Numbered from the stretch's first letter, positions 13,399 to 48,205 are shown. The stretch is DNA of 64,000 nt from a virus (IMGVR_UViG_3300033146_004399:96001-160000); one strand, 5' to 3'. Made by a program: numbers and translations. Notes: generated by a model from the letters alone, not told the origin.

Positions 13399-14676
13399 AT
13401 GGATGTTATAGGAAAATACGGAACAGCAATTATATATAACGATGATGTAGAACAGGAAGCTATATCGCAAGTTTATGCTCTTATGAATGATTCTATGATT
13501 GAGGGATCTACAGTTCGTATAATGCCGGATATTCATGCAGGAGCTGGTTGTGTTATTGGATACACTGCTATGCTTACAGATAAAGTTGTTCCTCAGCTCG
13601 TAGGAGTTGACATTTCGTGTGGGCTCTTGGGATTTAACTTGGGTCATAAAAAAGATATAAAGTTGAAATTTGATAAACTTGATAAATTTATTAGAAAAAA
13701 TATTCCTGCTGGTCAAACAGTAAATGATGAATTTGATGAAAATTTAATAAATAATATTTTTTCTTATATGAATGTTAAGTTTAAAACTTGGGATAAATAT
13801 AAAAAAGAATTAGAAAAAGCTTGTAATAGAACACATCAAGATTTTGATTATGTGTTACGATCATTAGGTTCCATGGGTGGAGGAAACCATTATTTAGAAC
13901 TTGGTGAAAGTAATGAAGGTGAATTGTGGATGATAGTCCATTCAGGGAGCAGAAACTTTGGTTTGAAAACAGCCCTCCACCACCAGAAGATAGCTGAAGA
14001 TCAAACTCTCACTATGTCTAAAGATGATTATGACGCTAAAGTTGAAGAGATTAGAAAGACTAAGAAAGGGAAAGGCATTGAAGTTGCTATACAGAAGTTG
14101 AGAAAACAATCTAAAGTTCGGAAGCATAAAAGAACTGGTCTTGAATACCTTGAAGGTGAAAAAGCAGAAGATTATTATAAAGATATGTATATTGCTCAAA
14201 TTTATGCAAGTTTAAGCCGTCATATTATGATTTATAAAATTGTTAAATTTTATGGGTTGAAATTTGATAAAGATAAATTGCTAGAAACAGTTCATAACTA
14301 TATAAATTTTAAGGATAGAGTATTAAGGAAAGGAGCTGTATCTGCTCATAAAGACGAGATGTTATTTATTCCTATGAATATGAAAACAGGAACGCTTTTG
14401 TGCCGAGGCAAAGGAAATGAAGCGTGGAATTGTTCCGCACCGCACGGTGCGGGTCGCAAAATATCTCGTACTAAAGCTAAAGCTTCCATAAGATTAGAAG
14501 ATTATCAAAAGGTTATGAGAGATGCTAAAGTATGGACAACATGTGTAAATAAATCAACTTTGGATGAAGCACCTGCTGCATATAAAAAACCAGAGGATAT
14601 TATTAAATACATAGAACCAACTGTTGACATTATTACTATGATAAAACCTTTGTACAATTATAAAGCAAATTCATAA
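13399..14676 (+). CDS. rtcB: RtcB RNA 3'-phosphate/5'-OH ligase
   Basis: MPDIHAG, VGVDISCG, GSMGGGNHYLE, VHSGSR, RKGA, SAPHGAGR and DEAPAAYK motifs. Confidence 0.95.
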   Translation: MDVIGKYGTAIIYNDDVEQEAISQVYALMNDSMIEGSTVRIMPDIHAGAGCVIGYTAMLTDKVVPQLVGVDISCGLLGFNLGHKKDIKLKFDKLDKFIRKNIPAGQTVNDEFDENLINNIFSYMNVKFKTWDKYKKELEKACNRTHQDFDYVLRSLGSMGGGNHYLELGESNEGELWMIVHSGSRNFGLKTALHHQKIAEDQTLTMSKDDYDAKVEEIRKTKKGKGIEVAIQKLRKQSKVRKHKRTGLEYLEGEKAEDYYKDMYIAQIYASLSRHIMIYKIVKFYGLKFDKDKLLETVHNYINFKDRVLRKGAVSAHKDEMLFIPMNMKTGTLLCRGKGNEAWNCSAPHGAGRKISRTKAKASIRLEDYQKVMRDAKVWTTCVNKSTLDEAPAAYKKPEDIIKYIEPTVDIITMIKPLYNYKANS

Positions 14677-16814: not shown

Positions 16815-17615
16815 AGGATGTAAATTTTATTCTTTAGAAAAGAAGAAAATTAGATTAAATGCAAAATTTATAGAAGAAGAATTGACTGAATATACTTTTA
16901 AGGTATGTAGTGCTTTTTATCCTCCCATATATATTAATGGAAATTCATCAGAATGTAATTTCTATAAAGAAAAAAAGACGAGGAAAAATATTAATAGTAA
17001 AAGCTAGGATGTTATTATTATGAATATAATTGAATGTATTATAGATATGATGTTAAACAATTGGTATATAAAAATTGATAAATACAATAGAATTAATGCT
17101 ATTAAATTATTAGATAAAACTATATATTATGAAGACAGTTTAGAGTTTTATACTATTATTTTTTATGAAAGTGATAATTTTAAAGATTTTAAAGACGGCT
17201 ATTATAGTATGAAAAAAATAAAAGATATATTAAAATATATCCCAATAAGTGAAGCTAATTTGAATGAAAAAGTGTTAATAACATTTGCTAAAGAATTATT
17301 AAGTGAAACCTAAAATATTATTGTGAAAGTGAGAAAAAAGAAATGAATGAAGGAAATTATCAAGGTGTAAAGCTACCACCAACTACGCCAAAACCACCTA
17401 TTATAGTTAGAGGCAGAAAAACGGATACATATAAACAAGCTTTTATTGATGGTCTTATTTGTTATGCGTGGTGGAAGGACGGCGTTCAATATGTAGGAAT
17501 GGCAGGAACTACTTTAAAGGAAGCTATAAAAGAAGTAGAAGCATCATGGAATTATCATGGGTAAACAAAGATTTTACAGAAGTTTTATGATTAAGAAGCA
17601 TAGTTATGTTTATAT

Positions 17616-17687
17616 GTTGTTATGGTCTAATGGTATGATGCGGGATTCTAAATCCTTGCGGTTTGGGTTCGATTCCCAATAACGACA
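17616..17687 (+). tRNA. tRNA with CUA anticodon (amber suppressor-like); CCA not encoded
   Basis: 7-bp acceptor GTTGTTA/TAACGAC plus A73; D-loop AATGGTA; anticodon arm CGGGA-TTCTAAA-TCCTT (CTA 17648-17650, top pair mismatched); T-arm TTGGG-TTCGATT-CCCAA; 72 nt. Confidence 0.8.
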
Positions 17688-19079
17688 ATATGATTACTAG
17701 AGAAATTATAGAATTAACAAGGGAGTGGCTTGGGGATGAAGGTATAACTGCATTTACTAAGATAGTGTTAGGAAGTGATTTAATTTACTTCCATTTTACA
17801 GCAGGTATGGACGTGAGAAATTTCCTTAGAGATACTACTTTATGTAAAAATTGGAACCCTCATGACTTTGATAATAACTGGCAAAAAATAATAATGAAAG
17901 CGATAGCAGAAGATTATACAGAAGAGGAGCTTATTAATGATAGAGATAGCTAGAGAATGGTATAAGAAACACACACGTCATATTGATGACTTGATGACTT
18001 CAAGAATGGAAGCATTGTATCTTAGACAAATCGATAAGGTTGGGTTTGAACCTCCTGAAGAGGATATGAAAAACCCTGAACGTTGGAAAGGTGATCATTG
18101 GCTGTGGTTTTCTAAAGAATACGGAATGGAGTAATGGAAATTATAAGACGGCAAAATTTTAATCTTGAATTTTATGAAATTCAAGATGGAATTAATACTC
18201 TCCGTATAGGACTTGCTGGTTTTAGAAAAGGCGAACCAGGCGCTTCAATGTTCTATCCTGAAAGTGGCGATGATTATATATTGGTCATTTATGATAATGG
18301 TTGGTATAAATTTCATATTAATGAGTTTACACATGAAGCAGGTTTAGAATATATCTCTGAAAAATTACATTGCTCCCTAGGTGATGCTAAAATTATTCGT
18401 GCTTTCATCAATGATTTATTTGAGCAAGATTCTCTTCTCCCACTTCTAACTGATGGAGCCACAGATTTCCATCTTAAAAATCCATATTTAATGAGGTAAT
18501 AATGTCTACACCAAATTTTCCTAAATTATGTATTGATGAGGATATTTCTATATTATCAAATCAAAAAAAAGACAAAATTGTTGATATTAGAGAACAACTT
18601 TGGCTGGAAGAACAACGGCAAAAGCCTGAAATAAGTAAAGAACAGATTCTTAGAAATAGAGAATACGAGCTAGATAGGAGAATTGAAAAAATACAAAAAG
18701 ATAAAGAAAGTTTTATAGAAAAATTTATTATATTATATTATTATTATTTGAAATTGAAAAATATAGATAAATATAAAGGCTTTTATAAAATTAAACTGGG
18801 TTCTTACATTATGAAAAAATATATAGTTTTCGGAAATGCGGAAAACTCAAACCATAGATTGGTAATATATAATAATAATAAGAAAATACTATTTAAAATA
18901 AAAGATAAATGGTATAATTTGTTTGATAATTTTGAAATAATAAAATTTGAATCTGAAGCAATATTTGAATTAGAGGAATTTTACAATTTACTTATTGATG
19001 TGATAAACGAAGAATTAAGAAAGAAGGAAGAAATACTAGATAATATAGATTTAACTAATATATCTTTAAAGGAGTTAAT

Positions 19080-31159: not shown

Positions 31160-31552
31160 ATGGATATTTTTGAAACACTAGGCGAAGCAATTGATTACGC
31201 AACAGAATTAGAAAAAGGGATTCATAACACTGGAGTATTTAACACTGGAGTATTTAACACTGGTTTACACGTAGATGTAGACACAAACGAAGATACTTAT
31301 ACAGTACAAGTTGAATTGCCAGGTCTCGATGAGGAAAACATAGATATTAACTACGAAAAGGATACTTTAACTGTTAAAGCTTCTTACGGAGAAGGAGGCT
31401 TGAGACGTGGAAATTATGAACGTACTTTTCCGCTCAGAGATGTAGACGCAACTAAGATTAATGCTACACTTAATAAGGGTGTGTTGAAAATTGTACTTCA
31501 TAAACTTGAAGAAAAGAAAGCAAGAAAAATAAATATTAATATAGGAGAATAA
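31160..31552 (+). CDS. Small heat-shock protein (Hsp20/alpha-crystallin domain)
   Basis: [22 protein letters not shown] and [12 protein letters not shown]. Confidence 0.9.
31225..31263 (+). repeat. In-frame 15-bp tandem repeat in hsp20 (about 2.6 copies)
   Basis: taacactggagtatt x2 plus taacactgg, encoding [13 protein letters not shown]. Confidence 0.85.
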
Positions 31553-31554
31553 AA

Positions 31555-32142
31555 ATGAAAAACGTTTGCATTGGAATTGACCTTGGTACTACAAATTCAT
31601 GTGTTGCTGTAATGGATGGTAAAGAACCCATCGTGATACAGAATGCTGAAGGCCAAAGAACAACACCATCAATAGTTGCATTTACAGCTAAGGGCGAAAA
31701 ATTAACTGGACAACCAGCGAAGAATCAGATTATTACAAATCCAGAAAATACAATTTATTCTGCTAAAAGATTTATAGGCAGAAAATTTTCTGAAGTTAAA
31801 GAAGAAATTGATATGATTCCTTACAAAGTTGTAAGCGGAAGTGGCTCAAGTGCGCGTATGCTTGTACATGATAAAGAAGTATCTCCTCAAGAAATATCAG
31901 CAGCAGTCTTACAGAAAATGAAAAAAACAGCAGAAGACTATTTAGGAGAAAAAGTAACTGAAGCCGTTATTACTGTTCCAGCTTATTTTAATGACGAGCA
32001 AAGACAAGCTACAAAAGATGCTGGTAAAATTGCCGGCTTAGAAGTTAAAAGAATAGTTAATGAGCCTACGGCAGCAGCTTTGTCATATGGCTTTGACAGT
32101 ATGAACAAAGAAGAGAAGGTTGCAGTTTTCGATCTCGGTGGT
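31555..32142 (+). CDS. dnaK: DnaK (Hsp70) exon 1
   Basis: [25 protein letters not shown]; ends ...VFDLGG. Confidence 0.95.
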
Positions 32143-33252
32143 AAATAATACTGCTTCCGTAAATGCCGTGAACTGCTGGAAAGTCCTTAGAGCTTAAATA
32201 ACTACAACGTAATCAGTAATGATAAGCGTGAATGTTAAAAATATTTAAGATTGGGCAATCAGCATCCAAGCTGCCTAGAAATAGGTAGAAGGTTCAACGA
32301 CTAGGTTATGGAGTCCTAACGTAAAGACGAGGACGGTAAAAACCCACGAGTGCGGCAAATTTTAATTTTGTTTATAATATACGATCTTTGACATAATGAC
32401 TAAAGATAAATATATGAAATATTATATTTATAAAACAGTTAATTTATTAAATAATAGATATTATTTTGGCTGTCATGCTACGGATAATTTGAATGACAAT
32501 TATTTAGGTTCTGGTAAAATTTTAAAGCGTGCCATTAAAAAATATGGTAAAAATTGTTTTAAAAAAGAAATAATTGAATTTTGTGATTCTATGACAGATA
32601 TGTTTCTAAAAGAAGAAAAATTGATAACTATTGATGTTGTTAATGATCCTATAACATATAATTGTTGTTTAGGTGGTAGAGGTGGATATAGAAATATAAG
32701 TGATATTGGCAAAAAATCAATTTCTAATGCTAGAAAAAATAAAGTTGTAATAAAAGAAAATGATGATACGTATAAAGTAATAGATAAAGAATTATTTGAT
32801 AAGAAAAAAATGCATGGCGCCACATATGGTAAAACAACAGCTAGAACAATATCTGGTAAATATATCGTTGTTACAAATGATGAATTTACTAATAATAGTG
32901 AATTAGTTGGTACTACTAAAGGTAAAACAGTAGTTAAAGATATTACTGGTAAAATAAGTGTAGTTGATGTAAATGATTATAGAATTAAAACTGGTGAATT
33001 GGTTGGAATAACAAAATATTCAAAACAAACACCTGAATCTAATTTAAAAAGAAGTTTAACATTAACTGGATATGTAAGAGGCAAACAAAAAATTGTTCGA
33101 TGCCCACATTGTAATAAAACCGGTGGAATATCTAATATGAAAAGATGGCATTTTGATAACTGTAAATATAAACAAAATTAAAATTAAGATATAGTCTGAA
33201 CTGTATTGAAAGATACAGAGGTTAAGATAAAGAACTTAACGATAACATATTG
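32143..33252 (+). mobile_element. Group I intron (1110 nt) in dnaK
   Basis: Exon ends in U and intron ends in G; P3 TGCCGT 32164-32169 / GCGGCA 32352-32357; P4 TGCTG/CAGCA; P7 GACTA 32299-32303 / TAGTC 33192-33196 with AAGATATAGTC S element; splicing restores DLGGGTFD. Confidence 0.92.
32396..33181 (+). CDS. Intron-encoded GIY-YIG homing endonuclease (alternative start at ATG 32414)
   Basis: YYIYKTVN..NNRYYFG.H...YLGSG..LKRAIKKYG..F.KEI; C-terminal CPHC; lies between P3' and the S element (P8 position). Confidence 0.85.
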   Translation: MTKDKYMKYYIYKTVNLLNNRYYFGCHATDNLNDNYLGSGKILKRAIKKYGKNCFKKEIIEFCDSMTDMFLKEEKLITIDVVNDPITYNCCLGGRGGYRNISDIGKKSISNARKNKVVIKENDDTYKVIDKELFDKKKMHGATYGKTTARTISGKYIVVTNDEFTNNSELVGTTKGKTVVKDITGKISVVDVNDYRIKTGELVGITKYSKQTPESNLKRSLTLTGYVRGKQKIVRCPHCNKTGGISNMKRWHFDNCKYKQN

Positions 33253-34515
33253 GGTACATTCGATATATCTATTCTAGAACTTGGAGACGGGGTATTTGAA
33301 GTTAAAGCTACAAATGGTGATACCCATCTTGGTGGTGATAATTTTGATCAAAGAATAATTGATTGGTTGATTGACGGTTTCAAAAAAGATTATGCTATTG
33401 ACTTATCACAGGATAAGATGGCTTTGCAACGGTTAAAAGAAGGAGCTGAAAAAGCTAAGGTTGAATTGTCAACAGCACAAGCTACAAATATCAATCTTCC
33501 ATTTATAACAGCTGATTCATCAGGGCCTAAGCATCTTCAGGTAGATTTAACACGTGCTAAGTTTGAACAGTTGGTTGATGACCTTGTACAAAGGACTAAA
33601 CAACCATGTCTTAATGCGATTAAAGACTCTGGTTTTAAAGTAGAAGATATCGATGAAGTTATTTTAGTTGGAGGTTCGACTCGTATTCCAGCGGTTCAGG
33701 AAATAGTAAAAGAAATTTTTAAGAAAGAACCTAACAAAAGTGTTAACCCGGATGAAGTAGTTGCTCTCGGAGCTGCTATTCAGGGAGGTGTATTATCGGG
33801 TGGTGTTAATGACATCCTCTTACTTGATGTTACTCCCCTTTCTTTGGGTATTGAAACTTTGGGTGGTGTAATGACTAAGTTAATTGATAGAAATACCACT
33901 ATTCCAACTAAAAAAAGTCAAACATTTTCGACAGCAGTTGATAACCAACCTGCTGTGTCAATCCATGTCCTTCAAGGTGAAAGAAAGGTTGTTAGTCAGA
34001 ATAGAACATTAGGTAATTTTGATTTAACAGATATACCTCCAGCTCCTAGAGGAGTACCACAAATTGAAGTTAGTTTTGATATTGATGCTAATGGTATAGT
34101 ACACGTGTCTGCAAAAGATCTTGGAACAGGAAAGGAGCAAAAAATAAAAATTGAATCTTCATCCGGTCTTTCAGATGCTGAAATAAATAAAATGGTTAAT
34201 GACGCTGAAGCTAATGCTGAAGCAGATGAATTAATAGTAGAAAAGATTCAAGTTAAGAATGACGCTGATAATCTTATTTATTCAACAGAGAAAACTTTGA
34301 AGGATTTCGGGGATAAAATTGCGGAAGAAGATAGAATAAATGTTGAAACTGCAATATCGGATCTAAGAGCTTCCTTAGACGGAGAGTTGGATGAACTTAA
34401 AATAAAATTTGAAGCGTTACAGCAAGTCGCACATAAAATTGCAGAAGCTGTATACACTGAAACTAATGATGCTACTGAGTCCGAGGATTCAGATTATGAA
34501 GTAGTTGACGAATAA
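33253..34515 (+). CDS. dnaK: DnaK (Hsp70) exon 2; spliced product 616 aa
   Basis: [37 protein letters not shown] and PRGVPQIEV. Confidence 0.95.
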
Positions 34516-34519
34516 ATGG

Positions 34520-34549
34520 AAAGAGGGAGTTTATACTCCCTCTTTTTTT
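34520..34549 (+). terminator. Rho-independent terminator after dnaK
   Basis: AAAGAGGGAGT-ttat-ACTCCCTCTTT followed by a T tract. Confidence 0.85.
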
Positions 34550-46621: not shown

Positions 46622-48205
46622 TTGACTCGTTCAGATTTAATAAAGTACGCAAATAAAAATTTATTTGTAAATGGGAAGTTTAAAGGTATACGTAAAAATA
46701 GTATTCATTTTAATTTATTAAATGATTGTTTACCTAATAAAGAATATGATATATTAGAAAGATTTTATTTATTTTATAATAATATAGAAACACCACCTCG
46801 TTGTATATGCGGCAAAAAATTAAAAATATTTCGTTGGTCAAATGGATATAATAAGTTTTGTAGTCCAAATTGTGGAGGCGTTGAATCAATTAAAACAATA
46901 AAAGTTAAATATAATGTGGATAATGTGTTTAAATTAGAATCTGTTAAAAGTAAATCTAAAAAAACTAAAAGTGAAAAATACGGTGATGAAAATTATAATA
47001 ATAACAGTAAAGCTATAGAAACAAATATAATTAGGTACGGAGTTTCTAATACTTTTCAACTTACAAATCGTATCACTGGAACAAATATAAAAAAATACGG
47101 TGTTAAACATAATTCATATAATAAAGATACTATTGAAAAAAGAAAATTAACTAGACTTAAAACTTTCTTTAATAATATCATAAAAAGAAATGATGATATT
47201 ATTCCTTTATTTAACATAGATAGTTATCACGGGATTGATAGAAAAAATAAATATTCTTGGAAATGTACAAAATGTGGCAATATATTTAGCGATCATTTAG
47301 ATGATGGACATATACCAAGATGTTTAGTATGCAACCCAAAACTTGTTGGTATATCTAGTTATGAACAAGAATTAAAAAATTTTTTAAATTTATATAATAT
47401 AAAATTTGAAAGTAATTCTAGAGAATTAATTAAACCTTTAGAACTTGATATTTATATTCCTTCTCACAATTTAGCTATTGAATTTGATGGCCTTTATTGG
47501 CATTCAGATGAATTTGTGGATAAATATTATCATTTAGATAAAACGCTAGAATGTGAAATGAAAAGTATACAATTAATACATATATTTGAAGATGAATGGG
47601 TTAACAAAAGAAAAATAGTAGAAGCACGCCTAAAAAATCTATTAGGTTTAAATTCTAGAAGGATAGGAGCTAGACAAACCACTATAAAAGAAATAGATGC
47701 TAAAACTAAAAATACCTTCCTTAATACTTTTCATATACAAGGTGAAGATAAAAGTAGTATTAAATTAGGTGCTTATTACAATGATGAATTAATTGGTGTT
47801 ATGACTTTCGGTAAATTAAGAAGATTTATGAACAAAATACATGTTGATGGAAGTTGGGAATTAATAAGATTTGTTACAATATCTGATACATGGACGCCAG
47901 GATTAGCTTCTAAGATGCTTATTTACTTTGAAAAAGAATGGAAACCAAAATTAATAGAATCATTTGCAGATAGAAGATGGAGTCAAGGTAATTTATATTA
48001 TAAATTGGGGTTTAAATTTGATAAGCAAACAATACCTAATTATTATTATTCTAAAAATTTAAAACGTTATCATAGATACAAATTTAGGAAGAGTGAATTA
48101 AAGAATTTCGATAATTATTCAATAGATAAAACGGAGTTTCAAATAATGGATGAAGCAGGATGGCTAAGAATATATGATTGTGGTAACTACAAATTTGTTA
48201 AATAA
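46622..48205 (+). CDS. Putative free-standing homing endonuclease (PD-(D/E)xK/Vsr-like core, zinc fingers, C-terminal extension)
   Basis: ELDIYIPSHNLAIEFDGLYWH, IHIFEDEW, KYGV repeats, CICG and CTKCG. Confidence 0.7.
   Translation: MTRSDLIKYANKNLFVNGKFKGIRKNSIHFNLLNDCLPNKEYDILERFYLFYNNIETPPRCICGKKLKIFRWSNGYNKFCSPNCGGVESIKTIKVKYNVDNVFKLESVKSKSKKTKSEKYGDENYNNNSKAIETNIIRYGVSNTFQLTNRITGTNIKKYGVKHNSYNKDTIEKRKLTRLKTFFNNIIKRNDDIIPLFNIDSYHGIDRKNKYSWKCTKCGNIFSDHLDDGHIPRCLVCNPKLVGISSYEQELKNFLNLYNIKFESNSRELIKPLELDIYIPSHNLAIEFDGLYWHSDEFVDKYYHLDKTLECEMKSIQLIHIFEDEWVNKRKIVEARLKNLLGLNSRRIGARQTTIKEIDAKTKNTFLNTFHIQGEDKSSIKLGAYYNDELIGVMTFGKLRRFMNKIHVDGSWELIRFVTISDTWTPGLASKMLIYFEKEWKPKLIESFADRRWSQGNLYYKLGFKFDKQTIPNYYYSKNLKRYHRYKFRKSELKNFDNYSIDKTEFQIMDEAGWLRIYDCGNYKFVK

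Follow-up and report, generated by a model that had tools for sequence, protein, structure and literature searches.

How an intact DnaK could be produced from a phage gene that is interrupted in the middle of its most conserved ATP-binding motif is the question raised by the locus described here. The locus lies in a window of 64,000 nucleotides, the whole stretch of DNA that was analysed, which covers positions 96001-160000 of an IMG/VR virus record of 179 kb (IMGVR_UViG_3300033146_004399; CheckV completeness about 63%, G+C about 30%). Homing endonucleases and phage-type structural proteins are encoded in the window alongside a DnaB helicase, a primase, and an RtcB ligase, as is a dnaK gene that is divided by an insert of 1110 nt. 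Below we examine the gene, the insert, and its relatives in other viruses. The features are collected in Table 1.

Table 1. Positions of the features discussed in the text, counted from the first base of the window
Feature	Position	Strand	Evidence or remarks
J-domain protein, 305 aa	6185-7102	+	
RtcB-type RNA ligase	13399-14676	+	phrog_1075, 1e-120; about 3 kb upstream of the suppressor tRNA
tRNA, anticodon CUA (amber suppressor)	17615-17688	+	ARAGORN, tRNA-Pyl; Rfam tRNA, 54.7 bits
Hsp20 gene	31160-31552	+	Pfam HSP20, 1e-15; directly 5' of dnaK
dnaK exon 1, 196 codons	31555-32142	+	Pfam HSP70, 2e-91, profile 2-195; ends ...FDLGG, last base U
Group I intron, 1110 nt, subgroup IA-like (P7.1/P7.2)	32143-33252	+	Rfam RF00028 half-matches; covariation; empty-site allele in L366
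P1, exon strand CGGUGGU	32136-32142	+	Pairs with guide GCUUCCG, 32153-32159; U.G at splice site
Internal guide sequence	32149-32159	+	UACU (P10) and GCUUCCG (P1)
P10	32149-32152 with 33253-33256	+	UACU with exon-2 GGUA
P3	32164-32170 with 32351-32357	+	95.5% paired; compensatory changes in 4/7 pairs
P4	32174-32179 with 32259-32264	+	
P5	32183-32186 with 32253-32256	+	
P5a-c extension, GUAA-capped	32193-32249	+	Compensatory changes in P5a, 7/7 pairs, and P5c, 8/8 pairs
P6/P6a hairpin	32266-32292	+	GAAA loop
P7	32299-32303 with 33192-33196	+	GACUA (inside the R element) with UAGUC; 5/5 pairs, 18/18 family members
P7.1/P7.2-like extension	32304-32344	+	Outer helix 100% paired, 4/4 pairs covary; inner helix 58%
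P8	32358-32376 with 33167-33185	+	Perfect 19-bp helix closing the 790-nt ORF loop
Putative GIY-YIG homing endonuclease ORF, 261 aa	32396-33181	+	In P8 loop; phrog_314, 5e-39
S element/J8-7 and P7 3' strand	from 33187	+	AGAUAUAGUC
P9	33201-33218	+	
P9.1	33221-33240	+	
Conserved tail	to 33252	+	GAUAACAUAUUG; ends at terminal G33252
dnaK exon 2, 420 codons and stop	33253-34515 (coding to 34512)	+	Pfam HSP70, 1e-167, profile 196-598
Intrinsic-terminator-like hairpin and T run	34518-34547	+	3' of dnaK
Free-standing HNH homing endonuclease, 527 aa	46622-48205	+	phrog_3339, 1e-124; between replication-region genes

Results

The insert divides a full-length dnaK gene

The two exons together span positions 2-598 of the 599 positions of the Pfam HSP70 profile, that is, full-length ATPase and substrate-binding domains. 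The insert falls between profile positions 195 and 196 (DLGG/GTFD), in phase 0 between the codons for Gly196 and Gly197, and thus in the loop of the Hsp70 ATPase that binds phosphate, the most conserved ATP-binding motif of the protein. As the exon profiles abut at 195/196, excision of exactly 32143-33252 restores the protein with no residue gained or lost and gives a product of 616 aa (196 + 420). Read on from exon 1, the insert has a stop as its second codon (AAA TAA). Exon 1 is collinear with intronless viral dnaK genes, and approximately 70 of the best 80 viral dnaK loci in IMG/VR are contiguous at the insertion point, which identifies the 1110 nt as an insertion.

The insert contains a group I ribozyme core

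The Rfam group I model (RF00028, Intron_gpI; gathering threshold 50 bits), with which the initial annotation of this DNA had proposed comparing the insert, matches both of its halves, the first at 32120-32416 (27.7 bits, E 1e-4) and the second at 33100-33218 (34.9 bits, E 7e-7). Both matches remain below the threshold because P8 is broken by the 790-nt ORF-bearing loop, which the model cannot span. A search of the whole 179-kb record with the same model returned nothing at E ≤ 0.01, the dnaK intron itself included, and ORF-bearing introns therefore escape a screen of this kind. The group I core, which could be mapped helix by helix, is formed by approximately 320 nt of the insert that lie outside the ORF. 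Its P, Q, R (GUUCAACGACUA), and S (AAGAUAUAGUCU) elements are all present, and P4-P6, R, and S are aligned by Rfam. The additional P7.1/P7.2 segment that characterizes subgroup IA is found in its usual place between P7 and the 3' strand of P3. Within P1, a U x U mismatch occupies position -4 and is conserved in 17 of the 19 members of the family described below.

Read from the sequence alone, the initial annotation had listed the core pairings P3, P4, P7, and P7.1/7.2-like segments, a U at the 5' splice site, a terminal G, and a possible guide, UACU-GCU, pairing with both exons. The mapped helices and their covariation confirm the core pairings. The splice-site pair U32142.G32153 is found in all 19 family members and G33252 is the terminal base, as had been claimed, and the guide is now resolved into P10 (UACU/GGUA) and P1, both of which covary.

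A family of introns at the same nucleotide

Exon searches of IMG/VR, together with a search for the junction pattern, uncovered more than 20 other viral Hsp70/dnaK genes that have a homologous insert at the identical nucleotide, mostly in giant-virus MAGs, and three metagenome contigs share the site as well. Many of these loci are on giant-virus MAG contigs with Mimiviridae-like neighbouring genes (collagen repeats, patatin, DUF5759). The site of the family lies after GGU GGU and before GG(U/A) AC of the DLGG/GTFD codons. All of the same-site inserts begin with AAA, carry the guide CUGC(C/U)UCC(G/A), and end in ...CGAUAAC(A)nUG, and they align with the window intron over the entire core. On Rfam Intron_gpI, whose threshold is 50 bits, two homologues that have no ORF reach 81.6 bits (L191) and 79.1 bits (L208).

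For the analysis of covariation, 19 same-site sequences were aligned over the 5' three-quarters of the intron, covering 63 pairs. In the mapped structure, which was derived from the same 19 sequences and so favours this figure, 86.2% of the cells are paired, compared with 38-44% when the partners are slid by 1-3 columns. Compensatory change is nonetheless large (43 of the 63 pairs), and the observed values were reached by none of 500 shuffles. P9 covaries in six of its seven pairs, and P1, P10, P7, and P9.1 are retained in 18 of the 18 members examined.

The helices that involve the exons behave in the same manner. At position -7 of P1 the pair is C-G in 7/19 members and U-A in 10/19, and at position -4 two members restore a pair where the others are mismatched. 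P10 covaries across the family (UACU/GGUA versus UUCU/GGAA). The base at -1 is U in every one of the 19 intron-bearing alleles, compared with 23 of 34 intronless ones. The sequences of P8 vary among family members and yet stay complementary.

The family is not uniform in its periphery. A sub-branch consisting of L053, L062, L080, and L174 is without P7.1/P7.2. The intron of L206 (10207-10623) has about 110 extra nucleotides past the CGAUAAC tail, and that of L136 (8526-9649) contains an HNH-like ORF that is located upstream of P7 and not in P8.

A scan of genome contigs with the pattern GGTGGTAAAN{5,35}CTGCYTCC gave chance matches, with no dnaK among at least 120 loci, and is uninformative on cellular introns. 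A further candidate was rejected. In locus L361 (GCA_964472775.1, a MAG with the gene order grpE-dnaK-dnaJ), dnaK is called as two ORFs that are broken at the same DLGGG motif (1700-1830), and the break consists of a stretch of about 100 nt rich in G homopolymers, which is most likely an assembly or frameshift error rather than an intron.

The P8 loop carries a putative GIY-YIG endonuclease ORF

The start of the ORF in the P8 loop is probably its second ATG (32414), where the homologue in L357 starts, giving a protein of 255 aa; its last codons overlap the 3' strand of P8. Besides PHROG 314 'homing endonuclease', the ORF matches NCBIfam TIGR01453 'group I intron endonuclease' at 4.8e-6 (5.9e-11 for the L357 homologue), both below the cut-off, and Pfam SegE_GIY-YIG at 1.9e-4, below GA. 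A phmmer search of PDB with the single ORF sequence gave no match, and only a family profile, built from the ORF and five relatives, reached the catalytic domain of I-TevI (1mk0/1ln0, E 5e-5). The GIY and YIG motifs (here YIY and YFG), a Glu at I-TevI Glu75, and the equivalent of Asn90 (YN) align with I-TevI, and an equivalent of Arg27 is not evident in the profile alignment, in which the linker is shortened at that point. Position 75 of I-TevI is the site of the E75A mutation in 1mk0. An AlphaFold model of the ORF product (overall pLDDT 59, confident for the N-terminal ~75 residues only) has 1mk0 as its best Foldseek match, with probability 1.00 and a TM score of 0.54 on the target. The C-terminal half has a zinc-ribbon-like motif, CPHC...WHFDNC, which is common to many phage ORFs.

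Just 5' of the ORF, at 32383-32395 (+), is a box, GATCTTTGACATA, that contains TTGACA and is conserved in L357 (at about 1190-1205). Its likeness to the 5' end of the Rfam DUF2693 RNA is weak (E 0.36). The box may serve as a signal for expression and move together with the ORF cassette.

In most of the other same-site introns the ORF is a different, unrelated one, about 373 aa long (about 370-410 aa in L050, L053, L062, L080, L174, L193, L199, L205, and L216), and belongs to no Pfam family. These ORFs have weak matches only, to a TnsA-like N-terminal nuclease and to phage endonuclease I, and could represent an uncharacterised family of homing endonucleases. As the ORFs differ within the family (GIY-YIG in the window, the ~373-aa protein, and the HNH-like ORF of L136), ribozyme and nuclease are separable modules.

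Large phages often have free-standing genes of the GIY-YIG (Seg-like) and HNH types, and the window has an HNH gene of its own at 46622-48205, so that the insert might be thought to be a free-standing endonuclease cassette, i.e., an intronless homing element, or else an intein. We consider this extremely improbable, and indeed already refuted by the ribozyme core and by the ORF-less homologues: the roughly 320 nt outside the ORF are recognised by Rfam as a group I core and supported by covariation, and versions of the insert that have no ORF occupy the same site. As for an intein, the insert is out of frame with dnaK and there is no continuous frame through it; the TAA two codons into the insert excludes this possibility.

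Close relatives represent three states of the locus

Three short metagenome contigs, L357, L360, and L366, are close relatives of the window phage. The first state, an empty site, is found in L366 (NCBI GCA_029935835.1), which is 95.4% identical to the window over Hsp20 and exon 1 and 91.8% identical over exon 2, and in which the exons are joined exactly at 32142/33253. Its junction, GGTGGA/GGAACA (L366 1020-1035), has a U neither at -1 nor at +3. The second state, an intron only, is found in L360, whose exon-1 protein is 91% identical to that of the window and is preceded by the same Hsp20 neighbour; the core of its intron is 91% identical, and its P8 is a plain hairpin with no ORF. The third state is shared by the window and L357, whose intron (83% identical) carries a 64%-identical copy of the ORF in the same place. 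The occurrence of no intron, intron only, and intron with ORF among relatives is therefore the pattern expected of a homing element. This natural series is unusually complete and is suited to studying the homing cycle.

When the L366 junction is set against the spliced junction of the window (GGA/GGA versus GGU/GGU), the two differ at two synonymous positions, those used by P1 and P10. The difference could reflect co-conversion, a constraint imposed by the ribozyme, or resistance to the endonuclease.

The ribozyme might also be a decayed, splicing-dead relic, in which case dnaK would be a pseudogene or would give two polypeptides (1-197 and about 421 aa, the latter from TTG 33250) that possibly reassemble. 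An ORF from TTG 33250 does cover exon 2, and a 2026 survey of viral HSP70 (PMC12978162) speculates that fragmented HSP70 genes give coherent proteins. However, all of the core helices and the P, Q, R, and S elements are intact, and compensatory changes keep the core in comparison with close relatives, e.g., a P3 pair that is G-C in the window and changed on both sides to A-U in L360. Moreover, neither exon is degraded, the U at -1 is kept, and the phosphate-binding loop of the ATPase is a poor place for a functional protein split. We therefore regard a dead relic as quite unlikely and favour a functional intron.

The neighbourhood of dnaK

The chaperone set of the phage consists of DnaK, the 305-aa J-domain protein, and Hsp20, and no GrpE was found in the 179-kb record. 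The Hsp20-dnaK gene order also occurs in the relatives L360 and L366. Among cellular proteins, those closest to the exon-1 product are DnaKs from MAGs of Spirochaetota (73-79% identity) rather than of Bacteroidota, and this likeness may be a hint of the phage host or of the donor of the gene. Recoding of TAG, suggested by the tRNA with the CUA anticodon, was considered and not adopted, as ORFs gain less from readthrough of TAG than of TGA and no clear sign of recoding appears in the window.

Discussion

On the basis of these results, we are highly confident that the insert at 32143-33252 is a mobile IA-type group I intron, with a GIY-YIG ORF, in the dnaK gene of a jumbo phage, and that it most likely self-splices and homes as proposed below. 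The sequence, the structure, its covariation, the exact empty site, and the three states among close relatives were observed directly, and from these we infer the splicing and cleavage activities. The initial annotation had likewise read the locus as a group I intron that splits a phage dnaK in its ATP-binding motif and whose removal exactly restores DLGG+GTFD in a 616-aa DnaK. The first of these claims agrees with the core, its covariation, and the empty site in L366, and the second with the two HSP70 profile matches (2-195 and 196-598). Its further proposal that the intron carries a homing endonuclease ORF is in keeping with the matches of the predicted protein to phrog_314, to I-TevI at the profile level, and to 1mk0 in Foldseek. 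Its suggestions that the enzyme might also cut host dnaK, and that splicing could gate how much chaperone is made, are conjectural.

The mechanism that we propose is drawn from the established biology of group I introns and GIY-YIG enzymes. The dnaK gene would be transcribed together with its intron, and ribosomes on unspliced RNA would halt at the TAA two codons inside the intron. Once folded, the ribozyme would use its guide to pair with the last bases of exon 1, with U.G at the splice site, and with the first bases of exon 2. Excision would then be initiated by guanosine and proceed through two transesterifications, and the ligated mRNA would encode the intact 616-aa DnaK. The GIY-YIG (I-TevI/Seg-like) product most likely cuts the intronless dnaK of co-infecting related phages near the site, and repair of the cut allele would copy the intron in, which completes homing.

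The initial annotation had assumed that no group I intron was known from an Hsp70 gene. This premise does not hold, since megavirus and moumouvirus were reported in 2012 to share a group I intron in HSP70, with that of moumouvirus having no endonuclease ORF (Yoosuf et al. 2012, PMC3542560). An intron in the HSP70 gene of Megavirus courdo 11 is also described in the recent survey of viral HSP70 (PMC12978162). The introns of megavirus and Acanthamoeba polyphaga moumouvirus resemble that of the window in being group I introns of a viral Hsp70 gene in which the endonuclease ORF is optional, a likeness that is drawn from the published descriptions of gene and intron type. The introns of the giant-virus MAGs in IMG/VR have the identical nucleotide position, the same guide, the P, Q, R, and S elements, and the CGAUAAC tail. 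The host of the window intron is a tailed jumbo phage, whereas megavirus and moumouvirus are eukaryotic giant viruses, and its ORF is of the GIY-YIG type, whereas most of the same-site introns carry the unrelated ~373-aa ORF.

The intron also has counterparts in large phages. The Lak-B and Lak-C1 megaphages of Prevotella (GenBank MK250020-MK250029) have dnaK inserts of 585 nt or about 1.5 kb at the same codon, and the Lak-A phages have an intronless dnaK. In the Lak-B4 insert the guide sequence of the family, P2, the R and S elements, and the tail can be read. These inserts, which are unannotated in GenBank, belong to the L079/L050 sub-branch of the family. An Rfam search of the Lak loci gave nothing at E ≤ 0.01, so that their homology is based on reading the sequence. 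The Lak paper discusses introns of tRNA genes only and does not mention the dnaK inserts. As to whether prior reports show dnaK introns to be common, which the initial annotation had named as grounds for refuting its reading, the answer is therefore divided: same-site introns occur in more than 20 viral loci of IMG/VR and in the Lak-B and Lak-C phages, but our literature search found no paper describing a group I intron in a phage dnaK gene. Large aquatic phages recently described as 'moraphages' carry DnaK, DnaJ, and Hsp20, a set that resembles the chaperones of the window phage, and their description contains no mention of the intron (PMC12619734).

Among the better-known phage introns, those of T4 td (with I-TevI) and of the lysin and polymerase genes of Twortvirinae (phage K/Twort-like) are similar to the window intron in several respects. 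They are IA-type introns with P7.1/P7.2 and an early stop, carry a GIY-YIG ORF in a peripheral loop, and are inserted in a conserved catalytic motif of the host protein. The 5' core of the window intron is approximately 83% identical over about 135 nt to the intron in the lysin gene of Twortvirinae phages of Staphylococcus, and both in structure and in profile searches the window ORF matches the catalytic domain of I-TevI best. However, the T4 and Twortvirinae introns reside in genes of nucleotide metabolism, replication, or lysis, whereas the host gene here is a chaperone. The I-TevI ORF lies in P6 of the td intron. Unlike it, the window ORF lies in P8, and its product has the C-terminal CPHC...WHFDNC motif instead of the I-TevI DNA-binding domain. 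More generally, group I introns have been widely reported in essential genes of jumbo and crAss-like phages (PMC12880540). The window intron is thus a further case of a known intron family that targets the DLGG/GTFD codons of Hsp70 in giant viruses and large phages, and what distinguishes it is the GIY-YIG cassette and the three states among close relatives.

The ribozyme and its host gene differ in their closest relationships. The window ribozyme is 67-68% identical to the introns of Mimiviridae-like MAG contigs, although the Hsp70 proteins of these contigs share just about 50-57% identity with that of the window. Its identity to the introns of those IMG/VR phage-like contigs in which DnaK is most similar (about 65%) is 59-61%. 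This discordance of sequence identities hints at horizontal movement of the intron. We consider it possible, although on balance doubtful, that a single mobile intron lineage has spread between the Hsp70 genes of giant viruses and the dnaK genes of jumbo phages while swapping its nuclease cassettes (GIY-YIG in the window, the ~373-aa protein elsewhere, and the HNH-like protein in L136), and that it could cut cellular dnaK as well. Under that scenario, the lineage would have been able to spread across virus realms because the DLGG/GTFD codons are universally conserved.

There is also a practical side to these findings. Gene callers break a dnaK of this kind into two 'partial Hsp70' ORFs and a hypothetical protein, and surveys of viral chaperones therefore undercount intact genes. 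With the intron described here, a chaperone gene is added to the phage genes known to have been invaded by group I introns, and the dnaK introns of phages are linked to an Hsp70 intron already known from Mimiviridae. This suggests that one intron family exploits a motif that has been conserved throughout cellular life and in two realms of viruses.
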